DNA of 64,000 nucleotides, taken from the IMG/VR virus record IMGVR_UViG_3300033075_001536, positions 32,001 to 96,000 of that record, one strand, 5' to 3'. This document shows, one piece after another, positions 1,501-59,443 of the stretch; position 1 is the first letter of the stretch; the number at the start of each line of letters is the position of its first letter. Source of the DNA: a virus. Taxonomy: Duplodnaviria > Caudoviricetes. The translations under genes and the position numbers were made by a program. The notes under the pieces are model-generated. The model made no database searches and was not told the DNA's origin. It was given only the letters and a program-made list of their open reading frames with translations.

Positions 1501-2163
1501 TTAATCGTTAATATAAGTGAATTTTGGATTGGCTCTAAAACTAATCCCAATACAATCTGTTTTTCTACCTGGGTTGGAATAATACTGTGCTCGACCAACC
1601 ACTAATTTTTCTCCCTCAATTTCTAAGTTATTTATCACATCAGTAATTCTTTGAACTTCGGTAGAATTCCCCCTATATCTTATATCTGAGTCAATTTGTC
1701 CAGATGGGTATTCACCCTCAAATGTTGAATAGGTTCGACTCATGTGAAGATTATAATTTCCACCAACTACTTTCTTAAATCTACTAGAAACAATTCTAAC
1801 ATCATTTCCACGAATCTGATAAAATGATCCCTCTTTGAATCCAATTCTTATTTTTAGATGTAAGTTACTACTATATTCATGAAAATAAGCTGGTAAATTT
1901 GGATATTCTTCTTTAAGTCTATCATAAGCAACTTTAAATTCGTCTATTACCTTTATATTTTCTTCAAATGCTTTAAAATATTGATCTATATTTCCTTCTT
2001 CAGATGGATGTAAACTAACTTCAATAGTAATGACCCCATCTTTTTCATGGAAATATCCCAATTTTTCATCCACCATATCCTGGAATATATTTCTTATCAT
2101 GGACACCATATCCTCAGTAGATGAAGATTCCAAAAATTTTTTTATTTTATTTCTGTTTTCCAA
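1501..2163 (-). CDS. CTS-like-tagged paralog-family protein
   Basis: KIKKFLES N-terminus; IRNIFQDMVDEKLG...YDRLKEEY family motifs. Confidence 0.75.
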   Translation of the reverse strand: MENRNKIKKFLESSSTEDMVSMIRNIFQDMVDEKLGYFHEKDGVITIEVSLHPSEEGNIDQYFKAFEENIKVIDEFKVAYDRLKEEYPNLPAYFHEYSSNLHLKIRIGFKEGSFYQIRGNDVRIVSSRFKKVVGGNYNLHMSRTYSTFEGEYPSGQIDSDIRYRGNSTEVQRITDVINNLEIEGEKLVVGRAQYYSNPGRKTDCIGISFRANPKFTYIND

Positions 2164-2536
2164 AGTAAAGTGTTAAATATTTTTGTGTGAAGTAATCATC
2201 TCCATCATCTGTTGAGAATCCTCCAAATGTCCATCCATCACCAACAATTCTATCTTTTGATTCAATAGAGGTGGTCATTAATTCTGCTAGATTTTCAAAA
2301 TCTTTTTCCAACTCATCATTATCTGAATTACCATAGATAATTTTAATGGATAGAGAGAGGTATGGGGGATGTCCTTTAACATCCGATAAAGTACACTCAA
2401 CTATAATCTCTGTATATCCTAAATCTAAAATGTCTTGTAAATATTCTTCTAGATTTGGAATTTCCTTTAAAGATCTATTTGTTTTATAGTCTTTAAATGT
2501 TAATCGATTAAAATTTTCAAATAGTTTAATTTCCAT
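2147..2536 (-). CDS. CTS-like-tagged paralog-family protein
   Basis: MEIKLFENF; LEEYLQDILDLGY...DRIVGDGW. Confidence 0.75.
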   Translation of the reverse strand: MEIKLFENFNRLTFKDYKTNRSLKEIPNLEEYLQDILDLGYTEIIVECTLSDVKGHPPYLSLSIKIIYGNSDNDELEKDFENLAELMTTSIESKDRIVGDGWTFGGFSTDDGDDYFTQKYLTLYFGKQK

Positions 2537-2542
2537 TAAATC

Positions 2543-2567
2543 TATATATTAAGTATTTTAATATATA
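2543..2567. promoter_or_regulatory. Divergent pair of TAATATATA boxes (putative phage late promoters)
   Basis: tatatatta at 2543-2551 (minus strand) and taatatata at 2559-2567 (plus strand), each 4-6 nt from a start codon; recurs before about 30 genes. Confidence 0.7.
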
Positions 2568-2571
2568 AATT

Positions 2572-3018
2572 ATGTCTAAAAAAGTAGATAGGTTATCCCA
2601 AATTGTTCCAGAAGTTTTTCCCAATATGGTTCGTACCTATAATGGGTTGTTATACGATGGAAATGGAAATTTAATAACAGTCTTATCCCAATTATCATAT
2701 AAAGTTTACACCTGTCTATTAACACAAAATGCTACATCAGACCCAACAGTTGTTGTCTTAGAAAATACAATCGGTGATATAAAATGGATAAGACATTCGA
2801 GTGGTGTATATCATGCATATTTAATAGATGCTTTCCCAGAAAATAAGACTTTCTATTTTTCACAAGCTACACAAAACAACACACCTGATAACGTTTGTGT
2901 CTATATGTCTAGAGGAAATAATGATATAATATCTATATCTACTTTATGGCAAGGATCTGGTGAAATTGATGGTTGGTTATTGAACACTCCTGTTGAAATA
3001 AGGGTTTATAATACCTGA
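2572..3018 (+). CDS. Putative minor virion/tail-associated protein
   Basis: VYTCLLTQ...P..VVLENTIG.I.W.R...G.Y...TPVEIRVY beta-rich module typical of phage fibre C-termini; late box upstream. Confidence 0.5.
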   Translation: MSKKVDRLSQIVPEVFPNMVRTYNGLLYDGNGNLITVLSQLSYKVYTCLLTQNATSDPTVVVLENTIGDIKWIRHSSGVYHAYLIDAFPENKTFYFSQATQNNTPDNVCVYMSRGNNDIISISTLWQGSGEIDGWLLNTPVEIRVYNT

Positions 3019-3197
3019 GATCCCTCTTGATTTTGCTCTAATCCATTCAAATATTCTTGAACTTTGTCTTTGTGAATAATTTCATCGGACCATTTGTAAG
3101 AGGTTCCTTTTTTTCTAGCTACAATTACCTTGACCCAATCTTTGGATCCTTCTTGTGTCTTTCTACCGGTATTTGCGTTTTTTGATACTTTTGCCAT
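3006..3197 (-). CDS. DUF4295 family protein / ribosomal protein bL38-like
   Basis: MAK...KDWVKVIVARKKGTSYKWSDEIIHKDKVQEYL resembles Bacteroidota DUF4295 (MAK..K...KVI..K....G.Y...E.....V.E.L); 63 aa. Confidence 0.65.
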   Translation of the reverse strand: MAKVSKNANTGRKTQEGSKDWVKVIVARKKGTSYKWSDEIIHKDKVQEYLNGLEQNQEGSQVL

Positions 3198-3210
3198 AAT
3201 TTCTTATATA

Positions 3211-3801
3211 TTAATTTTTTTCAAACTCTTTAAAACTTTCCACATGTTGAAGTTGATATCTTTCCTTCATTCTATCAAGAACCCCATTAATTTGTGAGAG
3301 TATATTGAGTTGTTTTTTATTTAGTTGACGAAGTTCAATAAGTTTTGAAACAATAAATTTTGTCTCATTAAAATATTTTGTTCTAAATTTATCCGAAGCA
3401 GTTGGGTGATCAGATATATTTTGAAGTCTATCACACAATTTAATTAAAAGTGCACCATCCGACATATTAATCATTTTATGTAGAAGATAATTTGCTTTTC
3501 CAACTGATTTAATTTTTTTGTCCGAGGATGAAAGTTCTTGTACAATATCAGCAATTTCTTTTCCAAACTCTTTTAACAAAACTTCATAGGTCACATCATC
3601 AACATCCTCTATTGAATCATGGAGTAAAGATGCGGCTCCTAAAATTGGATTGGTATCTACTCCCTTTAAAATTTGAAAAACTTTACGAACATGTCCATCA
3701 AAATAGGACATTTTTGTGAATTTTCTATTTACACCATGATGGGCTTTAATTGCAAAGTCCCAAGCTTTCTTTTCTAAGTCTGTAATTGGTTTGACTGCCA
3801 T
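3211..3801 (-). CDS. RelA/SpoT-type HD hydrolase (small alarmone hydrolase, Mesh1-like)
   Basis: FAIKAHHG..RK...Y..H...V; AASLLHDSIED; LIKLCDRLQN. Confidence 0.9.
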   Translation of the reverse strand: MAVKPITDLEKKAWDFAIKAHHGVNRKFTKMSYFDGHVRKVFQILKGVDTNPILGAASLLHDSIEDVDDVTYEVLLKEFGKEIADIVQELSSSDKKIKSVGKANYLLHKMINMSDGALLIKLCDRLQNISDHPTASDKFRTKYFNETKFIVSKLIELRQLNKKQLNILSQINGVLDRMKERYQLQHVESFKEFEKN

Positions 3802-3852: not shown

Positions 3853-4146
3853 ATGATGTCAAAAACCGAAATGGATGAACTTTTTAAATCAGGTAAGAAA
3901 TTATACTCACCTTTGATTAAATTAGTTTATTTACCAGCTGCTGAAAAAGAGATAATTATATCTGCACCAATACGGACATTTAAAAGAGCTGTAGATAGAA
4001 ATAGAATTAAAAGACTCATTAGAGAATCTATCAGAAAGATGGAAATTGGTAAATATCATCTAGCTATTATCTATATTGGAACTAAAGTGGAATCATTTGA
4101 AAATATAAAAGCTGAATTAGAAAAAATTATTCCTAGAATAAAATGA
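3853..4146 (+). CDS. rnpA: Ribonuclease P protein component (N-terminally short)
   Basis: RNR motif FKRAVDRNRIKRLIRES; LFKSGK; size 97 aa. Confidence 0.9.
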   Translation: MMSKTEMDELFKSGKKLYSPLIKLVYLPAAEKEIIISAPIRTFKRAVDRNRIKRLIRESIRKMEIGKYHLAIIYIGTKVESFENIKAELEKIIPRIK

Positions 4147-4715
4147 AATATTTGAGGAAATTTAATGAAGCAATTATGACTTCTCTTGACAAAATAAAAT
4201 CGGAAATTGATGATGTTTCTTATATTTTAGAAGATGAAAATCTCAATGTGCGCTCTTTTAGAAGGGGCTCAGAATATGTTGTTATTAATATAATAAACCC
4301 CGAATTAAACACCAATGGATTTGTAAATGCTCCAGGATATGTTCCCACCCCAACTAGATGGGATAAACGTGGATACCTCAAAAGAAGTTGGTTAAAATCA
4401 TTAGCCTTTAACGATGCTTTCGTTGAATTTATCGATCGTGTTGATGAAATTTGCAAAAAGAATGAATATGTTATTTTTGTTAATGGGTGTTCAAGTAGAT
4501 TTAAAGGGGATGATGAGATTGTAAAGTATTATAATTTTGATGAAATGTATATTGGTTCAAAAAATAGACCATTTACTCACATTGAAACTTTTATTGATGT
4601 TAAGAAAGCTATTAGAAATGAGCATAGATGGGCATATCCTGGAAAAATCGATAAAGGTATTAAATGGATAAATAAAAATATAGTTTATCCAGCAGCGGAT
4701 CTTATTGGAATTTAG
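4143..4715 (+). CDS. CTS-like-tagged paralog-family protein
   Basis: MKYLRKFNEA; EIDDVSYILEDEN...EFIDRVDEIC. Confidence 0.8.
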   Translation: MKYLRKFNEAIMTSLDKIKSEIDDVSYILEDENLNVRSFRRGSEYVVINIINPELNTNGFVNAPGYVPTPTRWDKRGYLKRSWLKSLAFNDAFVEFIDRVDEICKKNEYVIFVNGCSSRFKGDDEIVKYYNFDEMYIGSKNRPFTHIETFIDVKKAIRNEHRWAYPGKIDKGIKWINKNIVYPAADLIGI

Positions 4716-4724: not shown

Positions 4725-5040
4725 ATGATTGAAAAATATTTAAAATTTTTTGAAAAGTTAGGAGATGGTGAGTTTTATAAATTCTCTAAAACTATTAATG
4801 AGTATAGATATATTTTAGAGGATGAAGGATTTGAGGTTGAAATTATAGACTCATCGAGCTACTAACTTCAATTCGGATGAACTTTTTGAATTTATGGATA
4901 GAATCCAAGGAGATCTTCCTGATTATGAAATTGTTGCTGATCCACCACTGCCAGCTTTTGAAAACGAAATATTTGGATCTCTCTATGTAGATAGTATGAC
5001 TAATAAAAAGTATATTAATGTTTTCTTTAGAAAAAAATAG
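4725..5040 (+). pseudogene. Frameshifted paralog-family gene
   Basis: MIEKYLKFFEK...YILEDEGFEVEIIDSSSY* (stop 4863-4865); family C-half ...SDELFEFMDRIQ...FFRKK* continues in another frame to 5040. Confidence 0.75.
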
Positions 5041-5916: not shown

Positions 5917-6639
5917 CTATTTATTCAACACTTCTTTATTATAATACTCTTCAAATCCCTCCAACATATTTGAAACAGATGGTGATTTATCCAATCCGAT
6001 AATTTCATCCACTAATCCAAATTTCAAAGATTCATCAGAATTATACCAACGGTCTCTTCTTGAAAATTCAAGAACTTCATCAAATGTCTTTCCGCAATTT
6101 TTAGCTAAAATTTTAAATAAAATATAATTATACTTTTCTGCTTCCATTTGATTAATTCTGGTATCTTGGACATTTCCTTGAGTTCCATGACTTACCTGAT
6201 GTGTCATTACCTTTGAATAAACCAAGGAAGATCTTTTGCCTTTAGTTCCAGAGGATAACAATACAGATCCCATAGAAGCACACATACCGATATTGACGGT
6301 GGCTACATCCGAACTAATATAGTTCATAAGATCAACAATTCCTAGACCACACAAAACAGAACCACCTGGAGAGTTAATATAGAGAGTTATATCTTTCTTT
6401 TCCACATTATCTAAAAATAAAAGCTGCGCCTGAACAACATCTGACATATATTGATCAACAACTCCAGATACCCAAAGAATTCTATCTCTCATGAGTCGAG
6501 AAAAAATATCCATTTGTGTAACTCTCATTTCTCTTTCTTCGAGAATATAAGGTGTTAATGAGGTTTCAAATTGGTCTAATACGATTGAAGAAATTCCTTC
6601 ACTTTTTCCGAATTTTTTAAAATCTTGTCCTAAAGTCAT
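5917..6639 (-). CDS. clpP: ATP-dependent Clp protease proteolytic subunit
   Basis: LTPYILEERE..MDIFSRLMRDRI; YINSPGGSV; CASMGSVLL (catalytic Ser); MTHQ. Confidence 0.95.
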   Translation of the reverse strand: MTLGQDFKKFGKSEGISSIVLDQFETSLTPYILEEREMRVTQMDIFSRLMRDRILWVSGVVDQYMSDVVQAQLLFLDNVEKKDITLYINSPGGSVLCGLGIVDLMNYISSDVATVNIGMCASMGSVLLSSGTKGKRSSLVYSKVMTHQVSHGTQGNVQDTRINQMEAEKYNYILFKILAKNCGKTFDEVLEFSRRDRWYNSDESLKFGLVDEIIGLDKSPSVSNMLEGFEEYYNKEVLNK

Positions 6640-6677: not shown

Positions 6678-7166
6678 ATGCGATATATCAAAATGTTTGA
6701 ATCTTTCTCGAAAAAATTTACCGAAAGAATAAGTAATCTTGAAAAAGAGGCTATGGACGATCTAATGGATTATCTCTATGATATAAAAGACGAATTTCCA
6801 GATGTGGATATATCCAAGGACACTTGGGCGAACAATAAGTGCTTTCAAATTGAAATTAAATTTAAAGTATCTGATTTGGAAAAATTTAAAAATCTTTTTC
6901 ACGAAGGCATATTTGATAGAATAAAAGACGATCACATAGGAACCGAAATAATATATAGCGTCAGTTTAGAATGGTATAGCAATGAGTCAAATAGTTGGGG
7001 AAATTCTTTTATGTCTAGTAAGTCTATAAAATTATCAAATCCACTTGATGATTATCCAAACTATTCTATGGATATAAATTCACTATTAAATGCAATGGAT
7101 AAAAATAAAGTGATAGAGACAAAATCATCAACCCCACTTTTCAATATTCAAATACATATTATCTAA
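6678..7166 (+). CDS. CTS-like-tagged paralog-family protein
   Basis: MRYIKMFESF; DDLMDYLYDIKDEF...IFDRIKD. Confidence 0.75.
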   Translation: MRYIKMFESFSKKFTERISNLEKEAMDDLMDYLYDIKDEFPDVDISKDTWANNKCFQIEIKFKVSDLEKFKNLFHEGIFDRIKDDHIGTEIIYSVSLEWYSNESNSWGNSFMSSKSIKLSNPLDDYPNYSMDINSLLNAMDKNKVIETKSSTPLFNIQIHII

Positions 7167-7692: not shown

Positions 7693-10371
7693 ATGGTAAC
7701 TCCATTATATTCATATTTAAAAGAAAACGGCACTTCATTTTATGCTTTTCCTGGTGCATCGGAAGACATTTCAGCTTCCTATCAGAATCAAAATTATAAA
7801 ATGTATTTTTCTAAATACATTCTTTTAAATTTTCCAAAACAGCAATTAGTTCCTGGATCCACTGGATCTTGCAATCCAGTTCATTGGGATTTTGATAATA
7901 CTTCTGGGCTTGGATATGGATTCATTGAATCAAGCTCTTACACCGCACCAGCGACTTTTCAAGATGCTGTGATTGAATCGCTTAGAAATTATGTGGCTAA
8001 TCAAGAGGTTACGATTAGAGATTCTAGAATTAATAATACCGAATTTTATTATAACCCAAATGAACTTGGAACTACTGCCGAAAAAATATTTTTCAAATGG
8101 TGTAAAAAATTAGGACTTATTGACTTTGAACCGGCTATTGGTGGTGCTGTTCAATATTTTGATACACTGGATGAATTTAAAAGAAATAATGAAAATGATG
8201 ATTCTTATTTTCCAGAGTATTTATGGCAAGAAAGAAGAACAACTTCATATGATATTTCTAGTTGGTCTAATCCATCTGGTAATATTCAAGCTAATTTTAT
8301 AACCACTACCAATTTTAGAGAAGGTGATGTTATTACTATTACCGATGTTGTTAATACGGACATCACTACTGATTTGGGAACACATTCAAATGTTAGAGTG
8401 ATTTCGGTCACCACACTTCCGAGTGGAGATCAACATGTTGTTTTAGATGTTCCAGCTTCTATTTTATCTGGAACAGCTTCTGAAGGAACCGCTAAGGCAT
8501 CTTTAAATTACAATCGACTTGTTCAATATGTCGGTGAAGTAAATGGGGTGAGTAATGTAAATGAGTCTAATAAATCATATACTGAAGTTTACGCACATGT
8601 TCCAGATCATTCAGGATTAACTCCAGATATTTTATTTAGAACCATGGTGGATAGTAATTACAAACCAAACATGGTCTTCCCAATTGTCCCATCACAATAT
8701 CAACCAGAAATTATTGGGGCTGAATTATTTAATTCACCAATTGTATTAGCTCCACAAAATTATCCTGGATCTTATTTCGCACAATTCGATGTGAATGATT
8801 TTACCTATGATATTAATAATGGAGACTCAATTAGAAGAAGTGGTGACTACTTTGGAATAAATGGTGATATCAATTCTCCAATTGTAGATGGAAGAACATT
8901 AGACGGAATTTCCATAGATTTTAATACTTCTCACTATGCAAAGATGAATATTCCAAATAGGAATTTAACTAACTTTGATCAATTCAATGCTCTTGAGGTA
9001 GACAATAACCCGCCAAAAGATTTCGAATTTAATGCTATTCTTTGGTACTACACAACTATGGATCCAACAGGAACCATGTCAGAAAATCTATATGGTATAT
9101 CATTTTTGGATAATCCAAATAATAATCCAAAAGAATCTGAAGTTGGGATTGCTTTTCCAAAATTTAATAAATTGGTAGCTAATGGGTCTCAAGATGGAAC
9201 ATCTTATGCATTTGGATTAAATATCAATTTTAATATTGTTTCTGATAACCCGGTAGAAGCGTATAATCCAGAAGCTATTAACTCTTTATTTGGTATGAAC
9301 TTATTTAATGATGCGATGGAGAAACTTTCCAGTATTAATGATACATTTATACAAATGTTGGCAGATAACGCTACACTTGCTCAACAAGTTTCCGGACTAC
9401 AAAGTTTGTTGTATAGTCAAACCGATTTAAACACCATCAACCAAAGAATAAATAATCTAACCTCTTTAATTAATTTATATCAAACAAATCAAATTGTGGA
9501 TTCCGAGTCGGTTGTTGTTAATTATAACGGACAAACATCCCCACCAACTATTCAACTTAGTACGCAAGATCCAAGCTATGTTCAATTAAATTCCATAGCA
9601 ACCTCTAATATGTTTAATATAAATGGAATTATACCATACACTGTAAATGTTCCGGTAAATAAAAATTTCTTAACTTATATAACAAATGATGACCAAGTAT
9701 CATTCGATCTTCCAAATAATGATAAACTAACAATTGTGTTGGATAAGGATTTGTATTATAAGCAAAAGGCAGACTTTACCATCACTTCCTCTGACTTAGC
9801 TACGGAAAATAAAAAGTTAGATATTTATATGATGAGTATTTCGGAAGGAACATCTGTTCCAGTTGAAACGCTATTAATTGGTGATATTGATCTTCCGATA
9901 TTTTTTAATAAAAATACTCAGCAACCAAATTCAGCTAAGACTTGGAATAGTTTTGATTTTAAAATTGATTTTTCTCAAGATATAACATTAAAGTCAAATG
10001 CTATTTTACAATTAAACATTGATGCTCGATTTGATATCTTAACAAACTCAATAAAAGCAGGAGATGCTTTGGTTCTAAATAATTTATTTATTGGGACAAC
10101 TTCTGTATTTAATTTTTCTGGGCAATATGTGGTAGATTCTGTCTCAACTACTCAATCACAAATTAATTTAGATATTTCATCTAATCAAACATTCGTGAAT
10201 TATGGTGCTTCACAATCTTTGCCAATGACTCTACATGGATCATCAACTACTCTACTATCTAATCTTCCGTATATTTCTTTAAATAAAGGATATAAAATTT
10301 CTATCACTAGAATAGATTCTGATTTAGTTGCACTTTCTGATAGATATAATATTCAGATTAGTCACCTATGA
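7693..10371 (+). CDS. Large putative virion structural protein
   Basis: 892 aa, N/S/T-rich beta regions plus central coiled coil; late box upstream; clustered with other structural-like genes. Confidence 0.6.
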   Translation: MVTPLYSYLKENGTSFYAFPGASEDISASYQNQNYKMYFSKYILLNFPKQQLVPGSTGSCNPVHWDFDNTSGLGYGFIESSSYTAPATFQDAVIESLRNYVANQEVTIRDSRINNTEFYYNPNELGTTAEKIFFKWCKKLGLIDFEPAIGGAVQYFDTLDEFKRNNENDDSYFPEYLWQERRTTSYDISSWSNPSGNIQANFITTTNFREGDVITITDVVNTDITTDLGTHSNVRVISVTTLPSGDQHVVLDVPASILSGTASEGTAKASLNYNRLVQYVGEVNGVSNVNESNKSYTEVYAHVPDHSGLTPDILFRTMVDSNYKPNMVFPIVPSQYQPEIIGAELFNSPIVLAPQNYPGSYFAQFDVNDFTYDINNGDSIRRSGDYFGINGDINSPIVDGRTLDGISIDFNTSHYAKMNIPNRNLTNFDQFNALEVDNNPPKDFEFNAILWYYTTMDPTGTMSENLYGISFLDNPNNNPKESEVGIAFPKFNKLVANGSQDGTSYAFGLNINFNIVSDNPVEAYNPEAINSLFGMNLFNDAMEKLSSINDTFIQMLADNATLAQQVSGLQSLLYSQTDLNTINQRINNLTSLINLYQTNQIVDSESVVVNYNGQTSPPTIQLSTQDPSYVQLNSIATSNMFNINGIIPYTVNVPVNKNFLTYITNDDQVSFDLPNNDKLTIVLDKDLYYKQKADFTITSSDLATENKKLDIYMMSISEGTSVPVETLLIGDIDLPIFFNKNTQQPNSAKTWNSFDFKIDFSQDITLKSNAILQLNIDARFDILTNSIKAGDALVLNNLFIGTTSVFNFSGQYVVDSVSTTQSQINLDISSNQTFVNYGASQSLPMTLHGSSTTLLSNLPYISLNKGYKISITRIDSDLVALSDRYNIQISHL

Positions 10372-10742
10372 TCAGTAAATTTGATGAATATGTTTCTCCA
10401 GAAAAAATAATTTCAGAAATAAAAGAAATTTCTTATATTTTGGAAGATGAAGGATTCAATATAAATTATACAGTATCAAAAAATATTTATATAGGATATC
10501 TTTTTATAGTGATATCTAGATATCATAGAATAAATTACAAATTCCAAAAAAATCTCATGGAGTCTGAGTATTGGTTGGAATATATAGACAGATTAAAAGA
10601 AATTTTGGATAGATTTGGATTTTATCCAAGATTACCATGTTTATCGAGATTACACTTCGAAAACCGTCCCATAAATATAACTATTGTGATAGAAAAGTTT
10701 ACTCCAAGACAAAAAAGAAAAATGTTAAATAAAAACAAATGA
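10368..10742 (+). CDS. CTS-like-tagged paralog-family protein
   Basis: MISKFDEY; EIKEISYILEDEGF...EYIDRLKEILDRFGF. Confidence 0.8.
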   Translation: MISKFDEYVSPEKIISEIKEISYILEDEGFNINYTVSKNIYIGYLFIVISRYHRINYKFQKNLMESEYWLEYIDRLKEILDRFGFYPRLPCLSRLHFENRPINITIVIEKFTPRQKRKMLNKNK

Positions 10743-11092
10743 TTTGTAAATTTAACGAATTAAATCTTGAGAACGAAATAAAAGAAATATCTTATATCAT
10801 AGATGATGATTTTGGATATTTAAAAATTTCAAAAGCATATGGTAAGATATACATAACCATTTTGAACAACAGCTCTCCACCATCTAACAGCGCTTGGAAC
10901 CGGAAACCAAAAGTATCTAAATCACTAATTGATAGTGATCAGTATATTGAATTTTATGATAGGTTGAAGGAAATATTCTTTAAATTTAATTACAATTTAT
11001 ATCATCTAAAAGATCATAAGAATATTATCGTCCTTTCACCAATGACTGATATGCAAGTAAAGAGAAAATTAAAAAAGAATTCCAAATTATAG
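10739..11092 (+). CDS. CTS-like-tagged paralog-family protein (tandem with previous)
   Basis: MICKFNEL; EIKEISYIIDDDFG...EFYDRLKEIF. Confidence 0.8.
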   Translation: MICKFNELNLENEIKEISYIIDDDFGYLKISKAYGKIYITILNNSSPPSNSAWNRKPKVSKSLIDSDQYIEFYDRLKEIFFKFNYNLYHLKDHKNIIVLSPMTDMQVKRKLKKNSKL

Positions 11093-23079: not shown

Positions 23080-24348
23080 ATGAAATTGACAGGATACAAT
23101 GAATTTATTTTAGAGAACCAAATCGCAGAACTACTAGTGGAATCACAAATTGTTTATTCGCAGAAATTTCTTAACCTATTAAACACTATGGGTAGAACTC
23201 CAATAGTTCCTAAACTATTGACACTACAATCACAAGATAAAGAAATTCAACAAAATTATATTGATGTTGGTGGTGCTAAAGACACCGTCACTTTCACACC
23301 AGAAAGAAAGGTTAGAGAGCTAACTGGCAATAGAAATATTGTCTATGTTAGACAAGGAACTGGTGGGTGTTTAAGTCACATGAGTCGAAATCGATTTATT
23401 TTTGGAAGACTTGGATATACACCAGAGGGTGGATACATTACTGATGAGACACAATCACCACACTACAAACCACAAGAAGGAGAAGTTGGTAAAATTGTTG
23501 CTACTACACAAGGTATTAAAGCTCCCATTCAGACCTATGTCTTATTTGAGTGTACCGAAGGTGCTAATAAAGGTAAACAGTGTGTTATTAATAGAAGAAA
23601 GTTGAATGAAAGAGATGATACCTTTTCACAGATTTGGACAACTCAAAGAAATTCAATTAAAGTTGGAAGACTTGCAAGAGCTTTGATAACTCTACTCGGA
23701 GAAACTGTTACTGATGCTCAAGTAGAAGACTTTGTAAACAAATACAAATCTGCCTATGATGTAATGAATGATGCTTTCTCAAGATTTGATATTGTCGAAG
23801 GAAATAAAATTGCTTACTGGTATAACTATGAAAGATATGAGGATGAAAATGAAGGTGTTTTAGGATCTTCTTGTATGAAAAATGCTAGTTCTAGTTGGCT
23901 TAAAATTTATACAAAAAATCCAGAACAATGTAAATTAGTAATTTTGTATTCTGATGCTGGATCTATTGTGGATGGTAAATTTAAATCTGAAAAGATTAGA
24001 GGAAGAGCAATTCTATGGAAAACAGATCAAGGTGATATGTTTATGGAAAGAATCTATACCAAAGATGATTCTGATGTTGATTTATATAAACAATTTTGCT
24101 TCCACAATGGTTGGTGGTGTAGAACTCGTCAACAATATGGAACCGAATTCCAAGTTGAGAATGGTCACCAAACCAAAACAGCTCAATATGTAGTTACATT
24201 AGCAGAGTGTGATTTTAATCACTATCCATTTGTTGATTCTCTATGTTATTTGAATACATCAACTAAGAAAATATCCAATGTTCGGAGCTTAGTCTCTCCA
24301 GATAGAGTTATACAAAATACGGGTGGTGGATATAGTCCGTGTAGATAA
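23080..24348 (+). CDS. CTS-like-tagged protein of the SCM/RA(I/L)LW/M(D/E)RIY phage family
   Basis: MKLTGYNEFILEN; LGSSCM; GRAILW; FMERIY; YPFVDS; paralog of 44495..46162. Confidence 0.8.
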   Translation: MKLTGYNEFILENQIAELLVESQIVYSQKFLNLLNTMGRTPIVPKLLTLQSQDKEIQQNYIDVGGAKDTVTFTPERKVRELTGNRNIVYVRQGTGGCLSHMSRNRFIFGRLGYTPEGGYITDETQSPHYKPQEGEVGKIVATTQGIKAPIQTYVLFECTEGANKGKQCVINRRKLNERDDTFSQIWTTQRNSIKVGRLARALITLLGETVTDAQVEDFVNKYKSAYDVMNDAFSRFDIVEGNKIAYWYNYERYEDENEGVLGSSCMKNASSSWLKIYTKNPEQCKLVILYSDAGSIVDGKFKSEKIRGRAILWKTDQGDMFMERIYTKDDSDVDLYKQFCFHNGWWCRTRQQYGTEFQVENGHQTKTAQYVVTLAECDFNHYPFVDSLCYLNTSTKKISNVRSLVSPDRVIQNTGGGYSPCR

Positions 24349-27799: not shown

Positions 27800-27829
27800 T
27801 ATATATTAAAATTCATAAATCAATATATA
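27800..27829. promoter_or_regulatory. Divergent AATATATA boxes
   Basis: tatatatt 27800-27807; aatatata 27822-27829. Confidence 0.65.
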
Positions 27830-27833
27830 AGTA

Positions 27834-32736: not shown

Positions 32737-32740
32737 AATT

Positions 32741-33198: not shown

Positions 33199-33603
33199 AT
33201 GAATAGTATATACCAACTTATGGAAGAAATAAAATCGATTTCGTATATTATAGAAGATGAAACATTTTCATTTTTTAAACATAAAATTCAATTAAAAATA
33301 TCAGTAGAGCTAGAAAAGGATAGCAATTATGATATTTTTAATATAGTTCTATACCCAGATTGGAGTGAGGAAATATCAAACCGTGGAACAAATTAATATA
33401 TTGTTAGGAAAAGATTTTTATCAAAAATATTAAAGAGTGATCAATTTAAAGAATACTTTGATAGAGTAAAAGAAATTTGTAAATCTGATGGATTTGAATC
33501 ATCAGGAACAAATAATGATGGATCCGAAATACTTATTGGATTTTGGAAAAACAAATCAAGTATAATTAAAGAGTATTACCAGTTTGTCCAAACATTTCTT
33601 TAG
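33199..33603 (+). pseudogene. Paralog-family gene interrupted by in-frame TAA (33394-33396)
   Basis: EEIKSISYIIEDE...; same frame continues YIVRKRFLSKILKSDQFKEYFDRVKEICKSDGF... to TAG at 33603. Confidence 0.75.
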
Positions 33604-34811: not shown

Positions 34812-35225
34812 TTAATCTAATTTTTTGAAAGCAAATATTAATCTATCACTAATTAATATATCTATCATCTTTAATCCAATTTCTTCCATTCTACTGTCTA
34901 TTTCTTCTATAAGTTCTATGTGTTTAGGGTCCACATTTTTTTCAATAAGTTTTTCGTCCCCATTCTCTTTATGAATGTAAATTCCGAAATATAAATAGGT
35001 GTGGAAAAACCATTGAACATCTTTTCTAAGAAGTGTTGCTGGTGGGATTCTAAAGCTAACTTGCACTTGATCAATTTTTAAATTATCTTGATAGTTTCTT
35101 TTTTTACCAAATTCTATTTTAAAGTCATTATCATGAAATCCAAATTCATCTAAAAAGTCATTAAAAATGTTTCTAATTTCTTCTTGATCAATTGATTCCT
35201 TAGTAAATTCTATATACTTTTTCAT
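34812..35225 (-). CDS. CTS-like-tagged paralog-family protein
   Basis: MKKYIEFTKES; EEIRNIFNDFLDEFG...SRMEEIGL. Confidence 0.8.
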   Translation of the reverse strand: MKKYIEFTKESIDQEEIRNIFNDFLDEFGFHDNDFKIEFGKKRNYQDNLKIDQVQVSFRIPPATLLRKDVQWFFHTYLYFGIYIHKENGDEKLIEKNVDPKHIELIEEIDSRMEEIGLKMIDILISDRLIFAFKKLD

Positions 35226-44494: not shown

Positions 44495-46162
44495 TTATTT
44501 TTTATCCTCTATTTTATAATACCAATCATCATAAAATCCAAAAAAATCATCTCCAGATTTCTTTGCTTTTTTTACCTTAAACTTAACTTCTTTTCCAGAT
44601 GGTAACTTTGCCTCAACATCACGATCTTCTACTTTTTTAAGAGACTCTTTTTCCTCCGTTTTAGATTCGGAAAATCTATCATAAGGTATTTTACTAGTAT
44701 TCTTATATTTATCGGAAAAATGTTTTAGTAAATCTTTTTCATCTTTCTCTAGATCGGACTCTTCTTTTTTAGTAACTTCTTTCTTTTCTCGTCCATATCC
44801 ATAGTATTTTTCATATGGATCATAATATGGACGATCATATGGATTTTCAGCTGATTTCTTAGATTCTGACTTCTTAAGCTTTTGAGCCGCTGCTTCAGCT
44901 CTTTCTTGTATATACCTTTGAAATCTTTCTTGTGAGTAACTGCTATCACCAACAACTACCCTTACTTGCCCATCATTATCAACCATACCTTCTTGTCTAG
45001 AGGACACACCGACTAGTTCACCGTGAATGTTTACATTATCAGTACCAGACTGCTGCCCAGACATAGTCACATTGGCCGGAGTGTTTGTAATAGTTGCAGC
45101 TCCTGTTGGTATATAAACAGATCCTGCAATTTGTCCAAACAATCTACTTGTCTGTCTTCTTGTTGATCTTGGTCGTGATTGTTCATCTTGTAAATCATCA
45201 CCATAATCATCCAAGTCTGGAGTATCACCAAATCCGTAGTTATCTCTTTGCTCCGGCTCCAATCCACCCCAATTTTGTACCAAATAGTGTTGATAACTAA
45301 AATTTTCAGAATTGGCAAAAGTTCCATTTTTTGGATCAAAAAACTTAAAAGTATCGAAATAAGGATAGGTCTTAAATTTGAAATTTTCGAGTTTTAAATA
45401 TAGGTGAAGTCTTATATTTTTCCCATCACGAGTAAAATATTGTTCTGATTTGGATGTTTGTTCAGTTTTTGAAAGGTATCCATTTTTTGATGCCCATTCT
45501 TTAAAAAAATTAACATCGTGATCATACAAGCTATATATCCTGTCCATTACTTTATAACTATTACCATACTTATCCAAAGCATTTTCCCATAAAAGTGCTC
45601 TTGCTCGTAATTTATCATTAGCATCCATGTAGATAAGCATTTTACAATCTTTCGGATTTTTTGCATATATCTCCATGAATTTATTTTTTTCTCGATATCT
45701 CATACAAGAGCTCCAAAGAGTTCCCGAATTATGTCCATTCACACTACCATAGCTGCTTTGATCATAATATTTTAGAATCTCATCACCTTCAATAACTCTT
45801 AACTTAGTTTCATCAGAAGAATAATAAGACTTAATTAAATTGACAAACTCTTCAATTTTTTTATCATTTAATCCGACACGAACACACTGATCAATATTTA
45901 AAATTCGTCTAACAAATCGACCAATTTTCATATTGGTTCTACATTTATTATCTTGATATGGATCTGGGTGTGAAATAAATTTAGATTTTGATTTGGGTAT
46001 ATAAGATATCATATCCAAATCAGCATTTTCCTTTTTAACCCAATCACAATCAGCATCTGGTAAGATATATTCTCCTTGATGCACCAATAGTTGTGATATA
46101 ATATTTGATTGTGTTCTTTCTAAGAACTTAAATAGATCTGGATGTATGTGAATTACTGCCAT
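44495..46162 (-). CDS. SCM/RALLW/MDRIY-family protein with long low-complexity C-terminus
   Basis: LWSSCM; ARALLW; VMDRIY; YPYFDTF; no CTS-like tag; paralog of 23080..24348. Confidence 0.8.
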   Translation of the reverse strand: MAVIHIHPDLFKFLERTQSNIISQLLVHQGEYILPDADCDWVKKENADLDMISYIPKSKSKFISHPDPYQDNKCRTNMKIGRFVRRILNIDQCVRVGLNDKKIEEFVNLIKSYYSSDETKLRVIEGDEILKYYDQSSYGSVNGHNSGTLWSSCMRYREKNKFMEIYAKNPKDCKMLIYMDANDKLRARALLWENALDKYGNSYKVMDRIYSLYDHDVNFFKEWASKNGYLSKTEQTSKSEQYFTRDGKNIRLHLYLKLENFKFKTYPYFDTFKFFDPKNGTFANSENFSYQHYLVQNWGGLEPEQRDNYGFGDTPDLDDYGDDLQDEQSRPRSTRRQTSRLFGQIAGSVYIPTGAATITNTPANVTMSGQQSGTDNVNIHGELVGVSSRQEGMVDNDGQVRVVVGDSSYSQERFQRYIQERAEAAAQKLKKSESKKSAENPYDRPYYDPYEKYYGYGREKKEVTKKEESDLEKDEKDLLKHFSDKYKNTSKIPYDRFSESKTEEKESLKKVEDRDVEAKLPSGKEVKFKVKKAKKSGDDFFGFYDDWYYKIEDKK

Positions 46163-46543: not shown

Positions 46544-47761
46544 TTAAACACACATACAAGTCATCAAAACATCCATTGCTTTTTTATCATTCAAATTTTT
46601 GAAGTCAATAAATTGCTCTTTAACAGATTGAATTTCTTCAGCTGACAATTTATTATCAATAAACTTATCAATATAGAAATCAAATTTATGTCTTTCATCC
46701 GTATTAATATCATTATAGTCAGGAACAAATTTTAAATCTACTTTATTATTGATGATTGGTATTATCTCACCTCTTGGTCCAGAGTAAAATTCCCTTGGGT
46801 TTTTACGACCTCTTCTATTTCTTTTTCTACCACCCTTACTGGTTCTATCTAAAAATTCATCATCATATCCGTTCCAAGATGATATCCTACCATCTCTTGA
46901 TCCAATATTTGTTCCATAGTTACTTTTTTGAAAGTCATTATCGTCATAATCATCATAGGTCTTGTATCTTTTACTATTATGGTTAGTTTGGGTATATTTT
47001 TTAACAGTAACCACTTTTGGATCTCTTTTAGTTACCAATTTTTCCCAATTGATACCAATAACAGCATTTGCTAACCTTTCTAGGTGTGATATATCTTGCC
47101 TTTCGGTGTGTGTATGTTCTGAGTAATATCCAACAGAAATGTTAGTACATTCTGGTATAACTTCAGTAAATTCAGCTGAATCGGTGTATATTCCACCTTC
47201 ATCCAACTTATAGGTCATTCCATTTTTTCTAAATTCAGATTGAAGACTTCTAGCAAAGTCATCTGAACAACATCTTTTAGAAGATTGGTAGGTAATAATT
47301 GAATCTGTTCCTCGTCTGTCAAATGCCACACATCTATCATATCCTTTGAACATTGGATCTTTTGCTGCTAGTGAAGATCCAACACACCCAACTTCTTCAC
47401 CAAAGAAGAAGTAATATAATCCAGGAACCTTATGCTTTATCATATAAAGCATAACAGTCATTCCTGACTTATCATCAGCTCCCAAAACAGACTTACCATC
47501 TGTCTTGATCATATTTCCTTCTATAACATGTCTAACTTCTACCTGTTCCTTGCAAGCGGTATCAAGGTGAGAGGTAAACATTGTTTTACTTTCTCCAATT
47601 TTTAAAAACCAATTTCCACTTTCATCTTGTGAAATATCATTGGGTATTAAATCATTTTCTCTCAAAAGATCAATAACTTCATTTTCATATCCAAATGGAT
47701 AAGTTCTTGAAGTGAGTTTTAAGAAGGTATTTTTAACAAAATTATTTTTCTCTCTATTCAT
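46544..47761 (-). CDS. M28/M20-family Zn peptidase
   Basis: SHLDT; LGADDK; GEEVG; FDRRG; YTDS; N.SVGY..EH. Confidence 0.88.
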   Translation of the reverse strand: MNREKNNFVKNTFLKLTSRTYPFGYENEVIDLLRENDLIPNDISQDESGNWFLKIGESKTMFTSHLDTACKEQVEVRHVIEGNMIKTDGKSVLGADDKSGMTVMLYMIKHKVPGLYYFFFGEEVGCVGSSLAAKDPMFKGYDRCVAFDRRGTDSIITYQSSKRCCSDDFARSLQSEFRKNGMTYKLDEGGIYTDSAEFTEVIPECTNISVGYYSEHTHTERQDISHLERLANAVIGINWEKLVTKRDPKVVTVKKYTQTNHNSKRYKTYDDYDDNDFQKSNYGTNIGSRDGRISSWNGYDDEFLDRTSKGGRKRNRRGRKNPREFYSGPRGEIIPIINNKVDLKFVPDYNDINTDERHKFDFYIDKFIDNKLSAEEIQSVKEQFIDFKNLNDKKAMDVLMTCMCV

Positions 47762-49838: not shown

Positions 49839-50921
49839 ATGACTAAGCAAGAATTTTTAGAAAAAGCTAGAGGAAAACATGGGTATAAGTATCAATATCC
49901 GAATTTAAATGATAAAATTTTATCTACCGATGATATAGAAGTAGTATATGAAGGAAAAACATACACACAAAAAGTTGTTAAACATATAATGGGTAGGTGT
50001 CCAGAAAAAAATACTTTAAGGAAATCCACTTCTGAATTTATATCAGAAGCCAAATCTATTTGGGGAGATAGATATGACTACTCACTGGTGGATTATAAAG
50101 GGGCATTAAAAAAGGTAAAAATAATTTTTGAAGGTATTATATTTGAGCAAAAAGCTATATCACATTTACAGGGACAGGCTCCAGAAAAAAATTTAAATCA
50201 GGAAAATTTTATAAGAAAATCAAAAATAAAACATGGTGATAAATATGATTACAGATATACAAAATTCAATTCTGGTGATTCTCCTGTTATGATAGGGTAC
50301 AATGGTGTGTTTTATTTACAAAAACCATATCAACACCTAGTTGGAAATTGCCCAGAAAATTTAAGACTATCAACAAGAAAGACAACGAGTTCTTTTATTA
50401 GAGAATCTATGTTGGTTCATGATTTTAAATATAATTATGACAAAACCGACTATATAAAAAACCAAACCAAAGTCATAATCACTTGCCCTATACACGGTGA
50501 TTTCTCACAAAGACCATTATCACATCTACAAGGATCTGGGTGTCCAAATTGCAATGAATCAATTGGTGAAAAAAAAATTGCCAAATTTTTGAATGAGAAT
50601 AAAATCTTATATGATAGACAATATAAATTTCCAGATTGTAGGAATATATTTGAACTACCGTTCGATTTCTATATCCCATCTATGCGCACTATAATTGAAT
50701 TTGATGGTAAACAACACTATGAGCCAATGGAATTTTTTGGTGGGGTAGAATCATATGAAAGACTGAAAGAAAATGATAAAATAAAAAATAATTACTGTGA
50801 AGAAAATTACATTAATTTAATTCGGATTCGTTATGATCAAATTGAAGATATTCAAAATATTTTATGGGAAAACTTAAAAGTTTTTATAAAAATGGTCTCC
50901 AAAAATAAAAGAATTAATTAG
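49839..50921 (+). CDS. DUF723-repeat plus PD-(D/E)XK putative homing endonuclease
   Basis: Repeated F...A...HGD.YDY; ITCPIHG.F.Q...HL.G.GCP.C; LPFDFY..IEFDG.QH. Confidence 0.85.
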   Translation: MTKQEFLEKARGKHGYKYQYPNLNDKILSTDDIEVVYEGKTYTQKVVKHIMGRCPEKNTLRKSTSEFISEAKSIWGDRYDYSLVDYKGALKKVKIIFEGIIFEQKAISHLQGQAPEKNLNQENFIRKSKIKHGDKYDYRYTKFNSGDSPVMIGYNGVFYLQKPYQHLVGNCPENLRLSTRKTTSSFIRESMLVHDFKYNYDKTDYIKNQTKVIITCPIHGDFSQRPLSHLQGSGCPNCNESIGEKKIAKFLNENKILYDRQYKFPDCRNIFELPFDFYIPSMRTIIEFDGKQHYEPMEFFGGVESYERLKENDKIKNNYCEENYINLIRIRYDQIEDIQNILWENLKVFIKMVSKNKRIN

Positions 50922-51459
50922 ATCCTCTGAAATTAAATTCTTCTTTTGGTAAATTTATATGAAATTTAACTGGTTTGAATATGAAATAGTGTATTCTAAC
51001 CCAAGTTACATCATCTGAATAGGAGGTTGAATAGAAATTATTAAAAAATTGATACCCCATTCCTTCAATTCTATCTTCAACTTCTTCAAGGACTTCTATC
51101 ATCTCATTTTTATGTTTTATATTAAATTCGGTTTCCTCACCAAGAGGTGCTGGAAATTCTCCTCTTTTTTTATACAAACCACTTGATGTAAAATCTCTAT
51201 CTAAAGTAACTACCATAAATTCACCAATTTTTCTAAGGACATATAATTTTTCATTACCAACAGAAGTATCATCAAATAGAAATTCGGTTCCGAGACTTCT
51301 TATAAACCTATCAGTATTGGTGTCTTGTCGTGTACCAGATTCATTAATAAAAGTATATTCAAATTTATATCCAAGATCCATCACTGGTATGAATATATTT
51401 TCAATATCTTCAGTATCAACTTCTTGGCTAAAATTTTCAAACAGAGAAATAAACTTCAT
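50914..51459 (-). CDS. CTS-like-tagged paralog-family protein
   Basis: MKFISLFENF; EDIENIFIPVMDLGY...EDRIEGMGY. Confidence 0.8.
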   Translation of the reverse strand: MKFISLFENFSQEVDTEDIENIFIPVMDLGYKFEYTFINESGTRQDTNTDRFIRSLGTEFLFDDTSVGNEKLYVLRKIGEFMVVTLDRDFTSSGLYKKRGEFPAPLGEETEFNIKHKNEMIEVLEEVEDRIEGMGYQFFNNFYSTSYSDDVTWVRIHYFIFKPVKFHINLPKEEFNFRGSN

Positions 51460-57303: not shown

Positions 57304-57313
57304 AAGATAAAAC

Positions 57314-57936: not shown

Positions 57937-58192
57937 AATTCAAAATATACATGAAGATATTCTAAAAAGACAACTTGATTTAGAAAGACTTCTTAAATTA
58001 CCTAAAACAAAATCTGATTTAATTTTAAAGTTATTTGATGATTTAATGGACTCTTTTAAAGATGGTAAATTTTCTCCTTCTACGGGTCAGTCAATGGATA
58101 TAAATCGTTTGGTTATTTTATATAATACTTTGGTAGATGAAGGTTGGTTAGTGACAAGAAGAGAAAAGAATTTAAATAAATTAACAGAGTAA
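57929..58192 (+). CDS. Hypothetical protein with C-terminal tag
   Basis: Ends RREKNLNKLTE. Confidence 0.65.
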   Translation: MNRIQNIHEDILKRQLDLERLLKLPKTKSDLILKLFDDLMDSFKDGKFSPSTGQSMDINRLVILYNTLVDEGWLVTRREKNLNKLTE

Positions 58193-58213
58193 TATTATAC
58201 TATATGTTATATC

Positions 58214-58405
58214 ATGATGTTGCAGCTTTTTATGAATGAGTATATAACAAAAGATGTTTTAAAGGATGTTGTTAAAGAACTTAACAAAGGATTTAAAGGA
58301 TGGCAAACCACTTTTTGTCAGAAGTGTGGTTTGGATTTACCAGGATATGGAATCTACTGTGTTCAGTGTAATAGAGACGAAAATATAAAAGAGATATTAA
58401 AATGA
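58214..58405 (+). CDS. Zn-ribbon protein with C-terminal tag
   Basis: CQKC...CVQC; ends NRDENIKEILK. Confidence 0.65.
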   Translation: MMLQLFMNEYITKDVLKDVVKELNKGFKGWQTTFCQKCGLDLPGYGIYCVQCNRDENIKEILK

Positions 58406-58788
58406 AAATTTCATTTGACTTTGATGGTACGATCTGGGACGAGTTTGACAAAACTCCGAATAGACAAAAAGATGAAATTGGTCGAATTTGTAAAGATTAC
58501 ATTCGCAAAGGACATGATGTTTATATTATAACAAAAAGGTGGGGACCTAAATTTAGAAATGAGGGTTTAAAAAACGAATGTGATATTGTCTATCAAGTTG
58601 GATTATCACTTGGAATAAAAAAGGAAAATATAATATTTACTGATCGATTGTGGAAAGATGTGACTATTAAAAATTTAGGAATTGAGATGCACTTTGAAAA
58701 TTCAGATATGGAAGTTAAAATGATTGAAAAGTTAGGAGTTAAAGTTGTTCCTGTGGAAGATCCATATTGGAGAGATTTGGTTTATTAA
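58402..58788 (+). CDS. HAD-superfamily hydrolase-like protein
   Basis: ISFDFDGT; IIT.R; K; HFEN. Confidence 0.8.
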   Translation: MKISFDFDGTIWDEFDKTPNRQKDEIGRICKDYIRKGHDVYIITKRWGPKFRNEGLKNECDIVYQVGLSLGIKKENIIFTDRLWKDVTIKNLGIEMHFENSDMEVKMIEKLGVKVVPVEDPYWRDLVY

Positions 58789-58789
58789 T

Positions 58790-59022
58790 ATGAAATGCTA
58801 TTGTAAAAAAGTTGGAAAATTTTCAAAGGATCGAATTCTATAATTTTTAATCATGGACAGGAGTATGAATATAGTATAGGTGAACATGAAGAAACAAATA
58901 TTTTGGTATATACAATTCACAATAAAATGGATATTTTACCAGTGGTAGAGTCAAAATTTAGAATTTATTTTGATGATGCTAAGGAAAGAAGAAATAAAAC
59001 ATTAGAAGAGATTTTAAAATAG
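58790..59022 (+). pseudogene. Small gene frameshifted in an A6 run (real lesion or sequencing error), with C-terminal tag
   Basis: One extra A at 58805-58810 gives MKCYCKKSWKIFKG...DDAKERRNKTLEEILK*. Confidence 0.65.
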
Positions 59023-59023
59023 G

Positions 59024-59443
59024 TTATTTAAAATAAAATATAACTTGTTGGTTGGTGTATAAAACATCTATTTGGAATCCTTTTCCAATTTCTTCTAATC
59101 TTTCATAGAACTCCTCAAATTCTTCAAGTTCCATTATTTTATCTAAAGCATAAGAATCTGCTTCTAAATCAGAATCAATATAGTGACTACCTTTAAATAA
59201 ATTGTCCCTTATTTTACTTATAATTGGATTAAAAACTTCAACCGATATCCACAAGTAATTCTTTATATCCTTTCTTATTTCCACTATATGACCTTCGTCT
59301 TGGAGAATGTGTATAATATTTTCAACCTCTGAAATAAGATCATTATTAATAGACTTTCTAGAACTTTTCTTGCTGAACTCATTGGCTGCTTTTGCAAATT
59401 TTTGCATATCATTAAAATTCTCAAACATTTTCAAATATTTCAT
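59024..59443 (-). CDS. CTS-like-tagged paralog-family protein
   Basis: MKYLKMFENF; EVENIIHILQDEG...EFYERLEEIGKGF. Confidence 0.8.
   Translation of the reverse strand: MKYLKMFENFNDMQKFAKAANEFSKKSSRKSINNDLISEVENIIHILQDEGHIVEIRKDIKNYLWISVEVFNPIISKIRDNLFKGSHYIDSDLEADSYALDKIMELEEFEEFYERLEEIGKGFQIDVLYTNQQVIFYFK

Follow-up and report, generated by a model that had tools for sequence, protein, structure and literature searches.

Do the many small proteins scattered over one stretch of a phage genome form a single expanded family, and what would a phage keep such a set for? The stretch (the window, 64,000 nt) covers bases 32001-96000 of one 170,678-bp viral contig, IMGVR_UViG_3300033075_001536 (Caudoviricetes). 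An earlier note on the window had described one diverging paralog family of about 15 copies at 14 loci, nearly all of them with a short N-terminal tag resembling the capsid targeting sequence (CTS) of phage T4, and had conjectured that the set might be a packaged library of anti-defence or host-binding proteins. We observed that eight of these copies form a robust family, F1, while four fall into a second set, F2, one is marginal and two are unsupported. The best overall explanation, to which we give a probability of roughly 45%, is a long-maintained repertoire built on one scaffold with copy-specific surfaces, the tagged members of which would be loaded into the phage head.

F1 (the "YILEDEG / EFxDR" domain, ~95-110 residues) is almost certainly a genuine and previously unnamed protein domain, both as a family and in its architecture. 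It is present in 13 copies on the contig, eight in the window and five outside, and two of the 13 are broken. In an all-vs-all BLASTP of the 471 open reading frames (ORFs) of the contig, 12 ORFs were linked. A profile hidden Markov model (HMM) seeded on six copies, and iterated against the ORFs together with reversed decoys, converged on 12 ORFs and zero decoys (best decoy E 0.3). A second HMM was made from foreign sequences only, taken from homologues among 149 metagenomic cluster representatives that matched at E <= 1e-3 (from 1.84 billion proteins). With the tag columns removed, it recovered the same 12 ORFs at E 8e-25 to 2e-7, the first reversed decoy standing at 0.19. Iteration of the F1 HMM on a pooled database still gave the 12 ORFs plus one frameshifted copy, and an independent six-frame search gave 13 F1 places. 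The intact copies in the window, and the copies outside it, are the following.

Window 4143-4715, plus strand: F1 copy of 190 aa with the tag MKYLRKFNE; domain at aa 16-111, followed by a C-terminal extension of ~75 aa; HMM E 8e-25, hhalign 99.3%.
Window 10368-10742, plus strand: F1 copy of 124 aa with the degenerate tag MISKFDE; HMM E 5e-22; the orthologue P0155 is 85% identical; the start of the copy and the stop of an 892-aa ORF (7693-10371) overlap.
Window 10739-11092, plus strand: F1 copy of 117 aa, tandem neighbour of 10368; HMM E 7e-16; BLASTP against 10368, 33% identity, E 1.6e-6.
Window 27834-28268, plus strand: F1 copy of 144 aa with a long middle insert; HMM E 1e-16.
Window 32741-33196, plus strand: divergent F1 copy of 151 aa with a GTG start and the tag KYLKKLNE; HMM E 2e-7, hhalign 92%; a near-orthologue, P0156.
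Window 59024-59443, minus strand: F1 copy of 139 aa with the tag MKYLKMFEN and a 30-aa linker ahead of the domain; HMM E 2e-14; an 85%-identical orthologue, P0016.
Outside the window, genome starts 204, 10506, 15098, 123681 and 150902: five F1 copies, the last being the N-terminal domain of a 343-aa protein (g150902).

The copies are dispersed on both strands, some of them as tandem pairs, as had been described. The helix motifs as literally written in the earlier note matched only 1 and 0 places, and looser forms matched 16 and 12 places, where shuffled sequences gave 3.1 and 1.25. That note had also named the failure of an HMM to unite its copies as evidence against a single family; we found that the HMM recovered the eight F1 copies and failed for the other seven of the 15.

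What is constant in F1, and what is not, could be read from 192 aligned domains. Helix 1 follows the pattern E(59%)-I(68%)-x-x-[IL]-x-Y(71%)-I(80%)-L(73%)-E-D(99%)-E(74%)-G(73%)-[YIF], and is followed by a β-strand with alternating V/I. Helix 2 follows the pattern [DE]-x-[YF]-x-E(97%)-[FYW](92%)-I-D(70%)-R(98%)-[LIV]-x-E-I-C-x-x-x-G-[YF]. Between the two helices, the first β-hairpin and the loop before helix 2 are free in sequence and in length: this middle segment has 0.2-0.8 bits per column and many gaps, and it is 27-95 residues long (median 46.5, over 184 domains). No internal duplication of the F1 domain was found by hhalign self-comparison. The last strand is followed, in a subgroup of F1 (10368, 10739 and g150902), by a common basic tail, (M)TPRQ(K/I)R(R)K...NK, which is predicted to be helical (window 10691-10742 and 11042-11092, plus strand; L004:15529-15600, minus strand).

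One member of each set was modelled with AlphaFold2. The F1 model (10368) had a predicted local distance difference test score (pLDDT) of 73.4 and a predicted template modelling score (pTM) of 0.69, with the topology α-β-β-α-β-β-α. The F2 model (34812) had a pLDDT of 70.7 and a pTM of 0.69, with the topology α-β-β-(α)-α-β-β, the extra middle helix being of low confidence. F1 is predicted to fold as a two-layer α-β-β-α-β-β sandwich. The shared fold that had been expected was borne out for these two models, which have the same α-β-β-α-β-β order and the same top PDB neighbours (9dd2_A, 6i6y_A, 9drl_A, 6mrs_A, PilO, and GspM/GspL-type domains). The designed α/β module 9dd2_A gave VIA-align Z values of 6.8 and 6.0, and a circular permutant of ribosomal protein S6 gave 6.0 and 5.9; none of the Z values reaches the level at which such a match would say more than that the arrangement is a common one. 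The invariant Asp closing helix 1 probably forms an ionic lock between the helices with two residues of helix 2, the Glu and the Arg, which are one turn apart (D27, E71 and R75 in the 10368 protein); alternatively, the three may make up a conserved acidic docking face.

The neighbours GspM/PulM/EpsM, GspL/XcpY/EpsL and PilO (circularly permuted ferredoxin-like) have the same element order, with Z 4.7-5.8 over 67-83 residues, which is in the common-arrangement range, and they have no sequence similarity to F1. They are membrane-anchored dimerisation modules of secretion and pilus machines, whereas no membrane segment is present in F1. Foldseek searches of PDB and BFVD returned no match at E <= 1e-3, and the ESM Atlas gave only unnamed viral clusters. 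Among PDB sequences the best match had an E of 0.15.

We then compared the copies with one another. The F1 paralogs of this genome are 10-38% identical (mean 24%). Helix 1 is 42% identical between paralogs, helix 2 33% and the middle 12%, so the hypervariable middle described for the window was confirmed. Four of the paralogs have near-orthologues (P0155, P0016, P0156 and P0157) at ~85-93% identity, apparently from one closely related strain, and some others have orthologues at 50-62%. In the four close pairs, differences (indels included) were 3-fold enriched in the middle, at 44 of 199 columns versus 33 of 377 (Fisher p 1.6e-5, pooled over the four pairs, two of which drive the result). Between 59024 and P0016, the differences and a 5-aa indel lie in the middle segment (Fisher p 2.5e-7). 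This pattern fits a conserved scaffold with a fast-changing surface, be it through positive selection or through relaxed constraint.

The two broken copies are these.

Window 33199-33600, plus strand: F1 pseudogene, tandem neighbour of 32741; the ORF 33199-33396 ends at an in-frame TAA (33394-33396), beyond which the C-terminal half stays in frame as far as 33600.
Window 4725-5040, plus strand: F1 pseudogene; helix 1 (YRYILEDEGF) is in one frame, which stops at 4860-4862, and helix 2 (EFMDRI) is in another.

At 33199, the helix 2 motif EYFDRV lies downstream of the TAA in the same frame. Read through with an X at the stop, the locus gave a full-length HMM match (E 3e-18) and aligned end to end with the intact 135-aa metagenomic protein P0057 (53% identity, E 3e-38). 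Recoding of this stop codon is unlikely, as the stop is a TAA and long window ORFs elsewhere read well under translation table 11. At 4725-5040, the six-frame HMM search matched the N-terminal half at E 5e-7 and the C-terminal half at E 0.045. Only ~15 residues lie between the helices, versus at least 27 in intact members, so that most of the middle is gone; this spacing, together with the two frames, shows a frameshift plus a deletion. Each pseudogene is directly downstream of an intact paralog (4725 after 4143, and 33199 after 32741). Thus the six-frame HMM, the translations and the P0057 alignment established that both pseudogenes called in the earlier note, the frameshifted 4725 and the nonsense 33199, are real.

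Could the copies simply be largely dispensable and drifting, multiplied by tandem duplication or carried along by mobile elements (homing endonucleases, for instance), with the conserved helices reflecting a mere folding requirement of a small protein? Two of the 13 copies are indeed broken, the middle is at chance-level identity between paralogs, and HNH/homing endonuclease paralogs are scattered on the contig, one of them (49839-50921) overlapping the end of the F2 member 50914. However, the paralogs are old (<=38% identity), yet 11 of the 13 are open. Paralog-specific orthologues in other phages, at 50-93% identity, keep their frames open and their helices nearly unchanged; over the 192 domains, the conservation of the D/E/R triad is 97-99%, and the family is multi-copy in distantly related phages. 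We consider drift very improbable. The absence of recent duplicates, and the orthologues that the paralogs have elsewhere, indicated instead that the expansion is old and maintained, with occasional loss. Of the birth-and-death evolution proposed for the set, the deaths are borne out by two decaying copies; no recent births were seen (all pairs are <=38% identical).

F1 has so far been seen only in viral and metagenomic sequences. Two low-GC viral contigs from one metagenome carry nine matches in 60 kb and six in 55 kb, including two-domain proteins; these two contigs have only a handful of genes in common with this phage, at 25-46% identity. A tblastn search of 50,697 phage records gave no F1 match in cultured phages, and in 401 sampled Bacteroidota genomes F1 was not found, apart from one marginal match. 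The huge phages LR745206 and LR756502 gave weak matches only, mostly to the tag and helix 1. DNA-pattern scans with YILEDEG returned mostly chance matches: in IMG/VR, 2 of 32 loci were real, and in metagenome contigs there was one marginal locus among the 80 matches listed. In the Pfam scan of the listed copies, no family appeared at E <= 0.01 and nothing was above any gathering score (PF12699 included). NCBIfam gave nothing at E <= 0.01, and PHROGs gave only weak matches (E 0.02-0.1) to families of unknown function. A literature search on the motifs MKYLK and YILEDEG found nothing relevant. Expanded, tagged orphan families are a known phenomenon in large phages, while the F1 domain itself is new to Pfam, PHROGs and NCBIfam.

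Some copies of the domain stand alone, others are strung together in tandem along a single polypeptide, and others form the N-terminal module of a protein with further domains. Among the representatives, P0003 (five full or partial copies by domain parse) and P0007 are tandem-domain proteins. F1, or a diverged form of it, is N-terminal to a 200-aa tail in g150902, to a 75-aa tail in 4143, and to an M28-like domain in the 524-aa protein g166449 (L005:10449-12023). In the last case, the N-terminal part of 27834 matched the N-terminal ~140 residues of g166449 (32% identity, E 5e-9), and this N-terminus appears to be a diverged F1-like module fused to an enzyme-like domain. The M28-like peptidases are themselves a set of three paralogs, which includes genome 166449-168023 (minus strand) and window 46544-47761 (minus strand). 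The sole PADLOC match was a weak one, of aa 86-178 of 4143 (window 4398-4676) to the C-terminus of Gabija GajA (E 4.8e-4, 17 bits), and may be due to chance. As clues to function, the fusion partners were set aside; none was informative, and one apparent match, the ankyrin-repeat protein P0143, is probably a false positive.

These arrangements bear on another explanation, that the domain is a virion structural or assembly module (decoration, neck, tail accessory or scaffold-associated adaptor). Its conserved helical face would dock on a common virion protein, with different copies acting at different positions or carrying different cargos by fusion. In every fusion (g150902, 4143, the F1-like module on the M28-like peptidase, and 35222) the domain is at the N-terminal end, multi-domain tandem proteins exist, and the weak fold neighbours (Z 5-6) of both models include phage tail-terminator and neck proteins. 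Such Z values, however, are below the meaningful level. The copies are not in a structural gene block, and 13 diverged copies with a hypervariable middle and pseudogenes would be unusual for stoichiometric parts. We therefore regard a structural role as unlikely.

When we examined the listed loci that F1 did not take in, four copies fell into F2, a sister set whose predicted topology is the same but which profile comparison does not join to F1. Its members are 34812, 35222 (two domains), 50914 and two proteins outside the window, with leave-one-out E values of 1e-9 to 3e-2, and it has almost no external relatives.

Window 34812-35225, minus strand: F2 member of 137 aa; leave-one-out HMM E 1.3e-9.
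Window 35222-36658, minus strand: F2 protein of 478 aa with two domains, at aa 15-159 (36182-36616) and aa 189-334 (35657-36094); leave-one-out E 3e-6 and 5.5e-3.
Window 50914-51459, minus strand: F2 member of 181 aa with the tag MKFISLFEN; leave-one-out E 1.5e-5.
Window 1501-2163, minus strand: marginal candidate of 220 aa; E 5e-4 with the tag columns, and P 0.006 on helix 2 with the tag removed.

Uniting F2 with F1 was rejected, as hhalign gave a probability of only 3-6% and paired helix 2 of F2 with helix 1 of F1. Single members did show some likeness to F1. The match of 50914 to the F1 core was weak and in register (E 0.041; P 0.009 on helix 2 in an hhalign scan). That scan, of 130 small ORFs against the F1 profile, gave 13 non-F1 ORFs at P < 0.009, where ~1 was expected. 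The weak matches were in register on helix 2, and included 1501, three F2 members (50914 among them), g168033 and g136498. A wider and very old superfamily beyond F1 is possible, and the candidate at 1501 may be a remote F1 relative.

For two other listed loci, membership found no support. The ORF 2147-2536 (minus strand) had no match in any HMM or hhalign scan, its sole paralog link being g29485. The ORF 6678-7166 (plus strand) matched the F1 core at E 0.14, which is the decoy level; its sole paralog link is g22782, and it carries the canonical tag MRYIKMFES. In the C-terminal third of 35222 (window 35222-35638, minus strand) we observed a region with the motif YPDFRI, which is common to the C-terminus of the F1 protein g15098 (L001:15098-15300, minus strand). 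This third domain thus also follows an F1 domain, and it appears to be a second small module travelling with the family, unrelated to the two F2 domains of 35222.

The tag was evaluated separately from the domain. Over the 149 representatives its consensus is M-[KR]-[YH]-[LI]-K-x-F-[EN]-E, matched by 83-102 of them depending on strictness (56-68%), and it ends in E at position 8-9. The linker between tag and domain is 0-50 residues long. In this genome, the strict tag is present on 5 of 12 F1 and 1 of 5 F2 proteins, versus 20 of 232 crude genes. In 10368, 10739 and others there is only a degenerate K-F-(N/D)-E remnant, and the tag is absent from 33199, its intact relative P0057, and the two largest tandem-array proteins, P0003 and P0007. 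The statement that nearly all copies carry the tag was therefore overstated, the proportion being about half. As the tandem proteins and 33199/P0057 are without it, tag and domain are separable; the tag appears to be a separate module, enriched on the family and not universal.

The CTS of T4 has the sequence MKTYQEFIAE, and the internal proteins of T4 (IPI-III) are small basic proteins. Like IPI/IPII/IPIII and Alt, the F1 proteins are small, diverse and non-essential-looking. As in T4, a short N-terminal peptide (here M-K-Y-L-K-x-F-(E/N)-E) is common to unrelated proteins of the same phage and separable from the body, and this phage has a gp23-type capsid gene. Unlike the T4 internal proteins, to which they have no sequence or detectable fold relation, the F1 proteins are mostly acidic and do not share the basic charge. 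There are also 13 copies of one domain here, about half of them tagged, against three unrelated proteins in T4, and packaging and cleavage are putative. The T4 internal proteins enter the prohead by means of an N-terminal CTS of ~10 residues, which is then removed by the head protease (PMC7697877; for the CTS work see Mullaney and Black 1996, as cited there). The one line of evidence for packaging is the resemblance of the tag to this CTS in length, position, aromatic spacing and closing Glu, which is suggestive. By this analogy, capsid packaging of the tagged copies is a tentative proposal that we would sooner doubt than accept.

The genes around the copies bear on this question. The contig has a GC content of ~29%, is classed as linear, and has a CheckV completeness of 78%. 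The genes recognised in the window include those for Hsp70/DnaK, a T4 Rnl1-type RNA ligase, a RecA-like ATPase, a GT2 glycosyltransferase, an M28-like peptidase, ClpP, an RNase P protein, an HD hydrolase and an HNH endonuclease. Three genes of the contig matter most here.

Genome 170445-170678, minus strand: C-terminal part of a gp23-type major capsid gene (PF07068, E 1.4e-8), cut by the contig end.
Window 29094-30992, minus strand: full-length Hsp70/DnaK gene (PF00012, E 3e-256).
Window 5917-6639, minus strand: full-length ClpP-family protease gene (PF00574, E 1.8e-52), labelled head maturation protease in PHROGs and located between family copies.

Since the contig ends inside the capsid gene, the head and structural module lies largely beyond the assembled sequence. 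The ClpP at 5917-6639 is a candidate processing enzyme, or else a member of a proteostasis set with the Hsp70 at 29094-30992. The host phylum is probably Bacteroidota: in a comparison of the phage Hsp70 with GTDB genomes, every one of its 80 best cellular relatives came from this phylum (65-72% identity), Mucilaginibacter, Pedobacter and Flavobacteriaceae among them. At the DNA level, distant similarity was seen between one large gene of the contig and uncultured phages of 634-642 kb.

The same neighbourhood counts in favour of another explanation, in which the copies would be cytoplasmic accessory proteins, made in the infected cell and unpackaged, that modulate host or phage processes like the small ORFs of the T4 hyperplastic regions. 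The tag could then be a signal for the phage Hsp70/DnaK or ClpP, or a favoured unstructured, A/T-rich translation start. The copies lie among the genes for DnaK, ClpP, RNA ligase, the RecA-like protein and the RNase P protein, and the phage encodes both Hsp70 and ClpP in full length. With basic residues on either side, Y-L-x-x-F looks like a DnaK-binding or degron-type peptide; a good tag is missing from half of the copies, and the members are acidic. However, conservation of the tag as an amino-acid sequence extends to very divergent phages and to unrelated proteins; an effect on translation start would not need Y/L/F/E at fixed positions, and the closing Glu is as in the T4 CTS. T4 itself is not known to have a DnaK. 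On balance we find a cytoplasmic role, the main rival of packaging, possible and somewhat doubtful. A related long shot is that the tag would be read by the phage Hsp70/ClpP pair as a phage-run proteostasis code for the accessory proteome.

Start-proximal sequences were also evaluated. The octamer AATATATA, often inside TTAATATATAA, starts 12-16 nt ahead of the start codon in 76 of 232 genes, and its frequency near starts is 15-fold above expectation genome-wide (for example at window 27813-27833, 32720-32740 and 59444-59465). It could be a start-proximal promoter (of near-leaderless mRNAs) or an initiation signal. Promoter co-regulation of F1 through this box was rejected, since it is common to about one third of all genes and not family-specific.

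F1 and F2 are not the only expansions on the contig. Nine large proteins (348-868 aa) are joined by BLASTP, at window 23080-24348 (plus strand), window 44495-46162 (minus strand) and seven loci outside; 44495-46162, the only member scanned, had no match in Pfam or PHROGs. The HNH/homing-endonuclease paralogs number three, at window 49839-50921 (plus strand), window 25831-26487 (plus strand) and genome 169468-170328 (minus strand), and match phrog_559 (E 6e-63). The first of these overlaps the end of 50914 by 8 nt.

How, then, is the set best explained? In the long-maintained repertoire that we favour, the two helices would be the constant scaffold, perhaps with a constant docking face, and the variable middle would be the part that differs functionally from copy to copy. 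The set would consist of small binding or accessory proteins directed against different partners in a (probably Bacteroidota) host. The tagged copies would enter the prohead, undergo trimming by the head protease and leave the particle together with the DNA, like the T4 internal proteins. The first component, a repertoire of variable surfaces, has in our judgement an even chance of being right.

Several observations weigh against this explanation as a whole. A good tag is present on no more than about half of the copies. The isoelectric points are low (8 of 11 full-length F1 proteins are below 7.1, and 116 external single-domain members have a median of 5.4, with 14% basic), and the copies sit among replication and proteostasis genes and not head genes. 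An S77 (gp21-type) prohead protease (PF03420) was not found on the contig, which is ~78% complete and lacks the head module; in distant huge phages the S77 matches were sub-threshold. With AATATATA being general to a third of the genes, no late-gene co-regulation of the copies is visible. The predicted fold gives no functional hint, as the best Z of 6.8 is below the noise level and the fold is among the commonest α/β arrangements. The faster change of the middle could also reflect relaxed constraint rather than selection for diversity.

A stronger form of the same idea makes F1 and F2 together a delivery scaffold of modular design. The D-E-R triad and an acidic patch, as the invariant helical face, would dock with the tag onto the prohead core, and the hypervariable hairpin and loop would bind the targets. 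Large Bacteroidota phages would then load a dozen or more small binders into the capsid and inject them to act on targets in host defence or takeover, and now and then an enzyme would ride as cargo behind this scaffold. We regard this as a long shot.

Among known systems, the closest functional analogues by comparison would be the T4 internal proteins with their CTS first, and the head paralog families of giant phages next. In SPN3US and phiKZ, the paralog families were found by mass spectrometry of virions; family A comprises inner-body proteins (Pfam PF12699), while family B of SPN3US comprises head proteins, has 20 members, and varies from 2 to 20 between relatives (PMC5694885). Like these families, F1 is large, phage-specific and without an assigned function, its copy number is strongly variable, and its copies are scattered or clustered. 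Unlike them, it has no PF12699 match and is known here from sequence alone, and it has a different fold and belongs to a different lineage (T4-type capsid, Bacteroidota host). By sequence, F1 belongs neither to the T4 internal proteins nor to the SPN3US/phiKZ families.

In large phages a sizeable share of the genes lies in expanded families of small orphan proteins, almost none of which has a known role. F1 is now delimited as one of them, in its boundaries, invariant residues, predicted fold, true members versus look-alikes, broken copies and viral restriction, and this definition suffices for a database model and for the choice of constructs. If the proteins are not packaged, F1 would still be a clean case of a small-protein repertoire maintained and diversified over the long term, and of ordinary interest. 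If the tagged copies are head-loaded and injected, the phage would have a large and diversifiable arsenal at hand at the first moment of infection of Bacteroidota, and the tag would offer a practical way to load such phages with foreign proteins.

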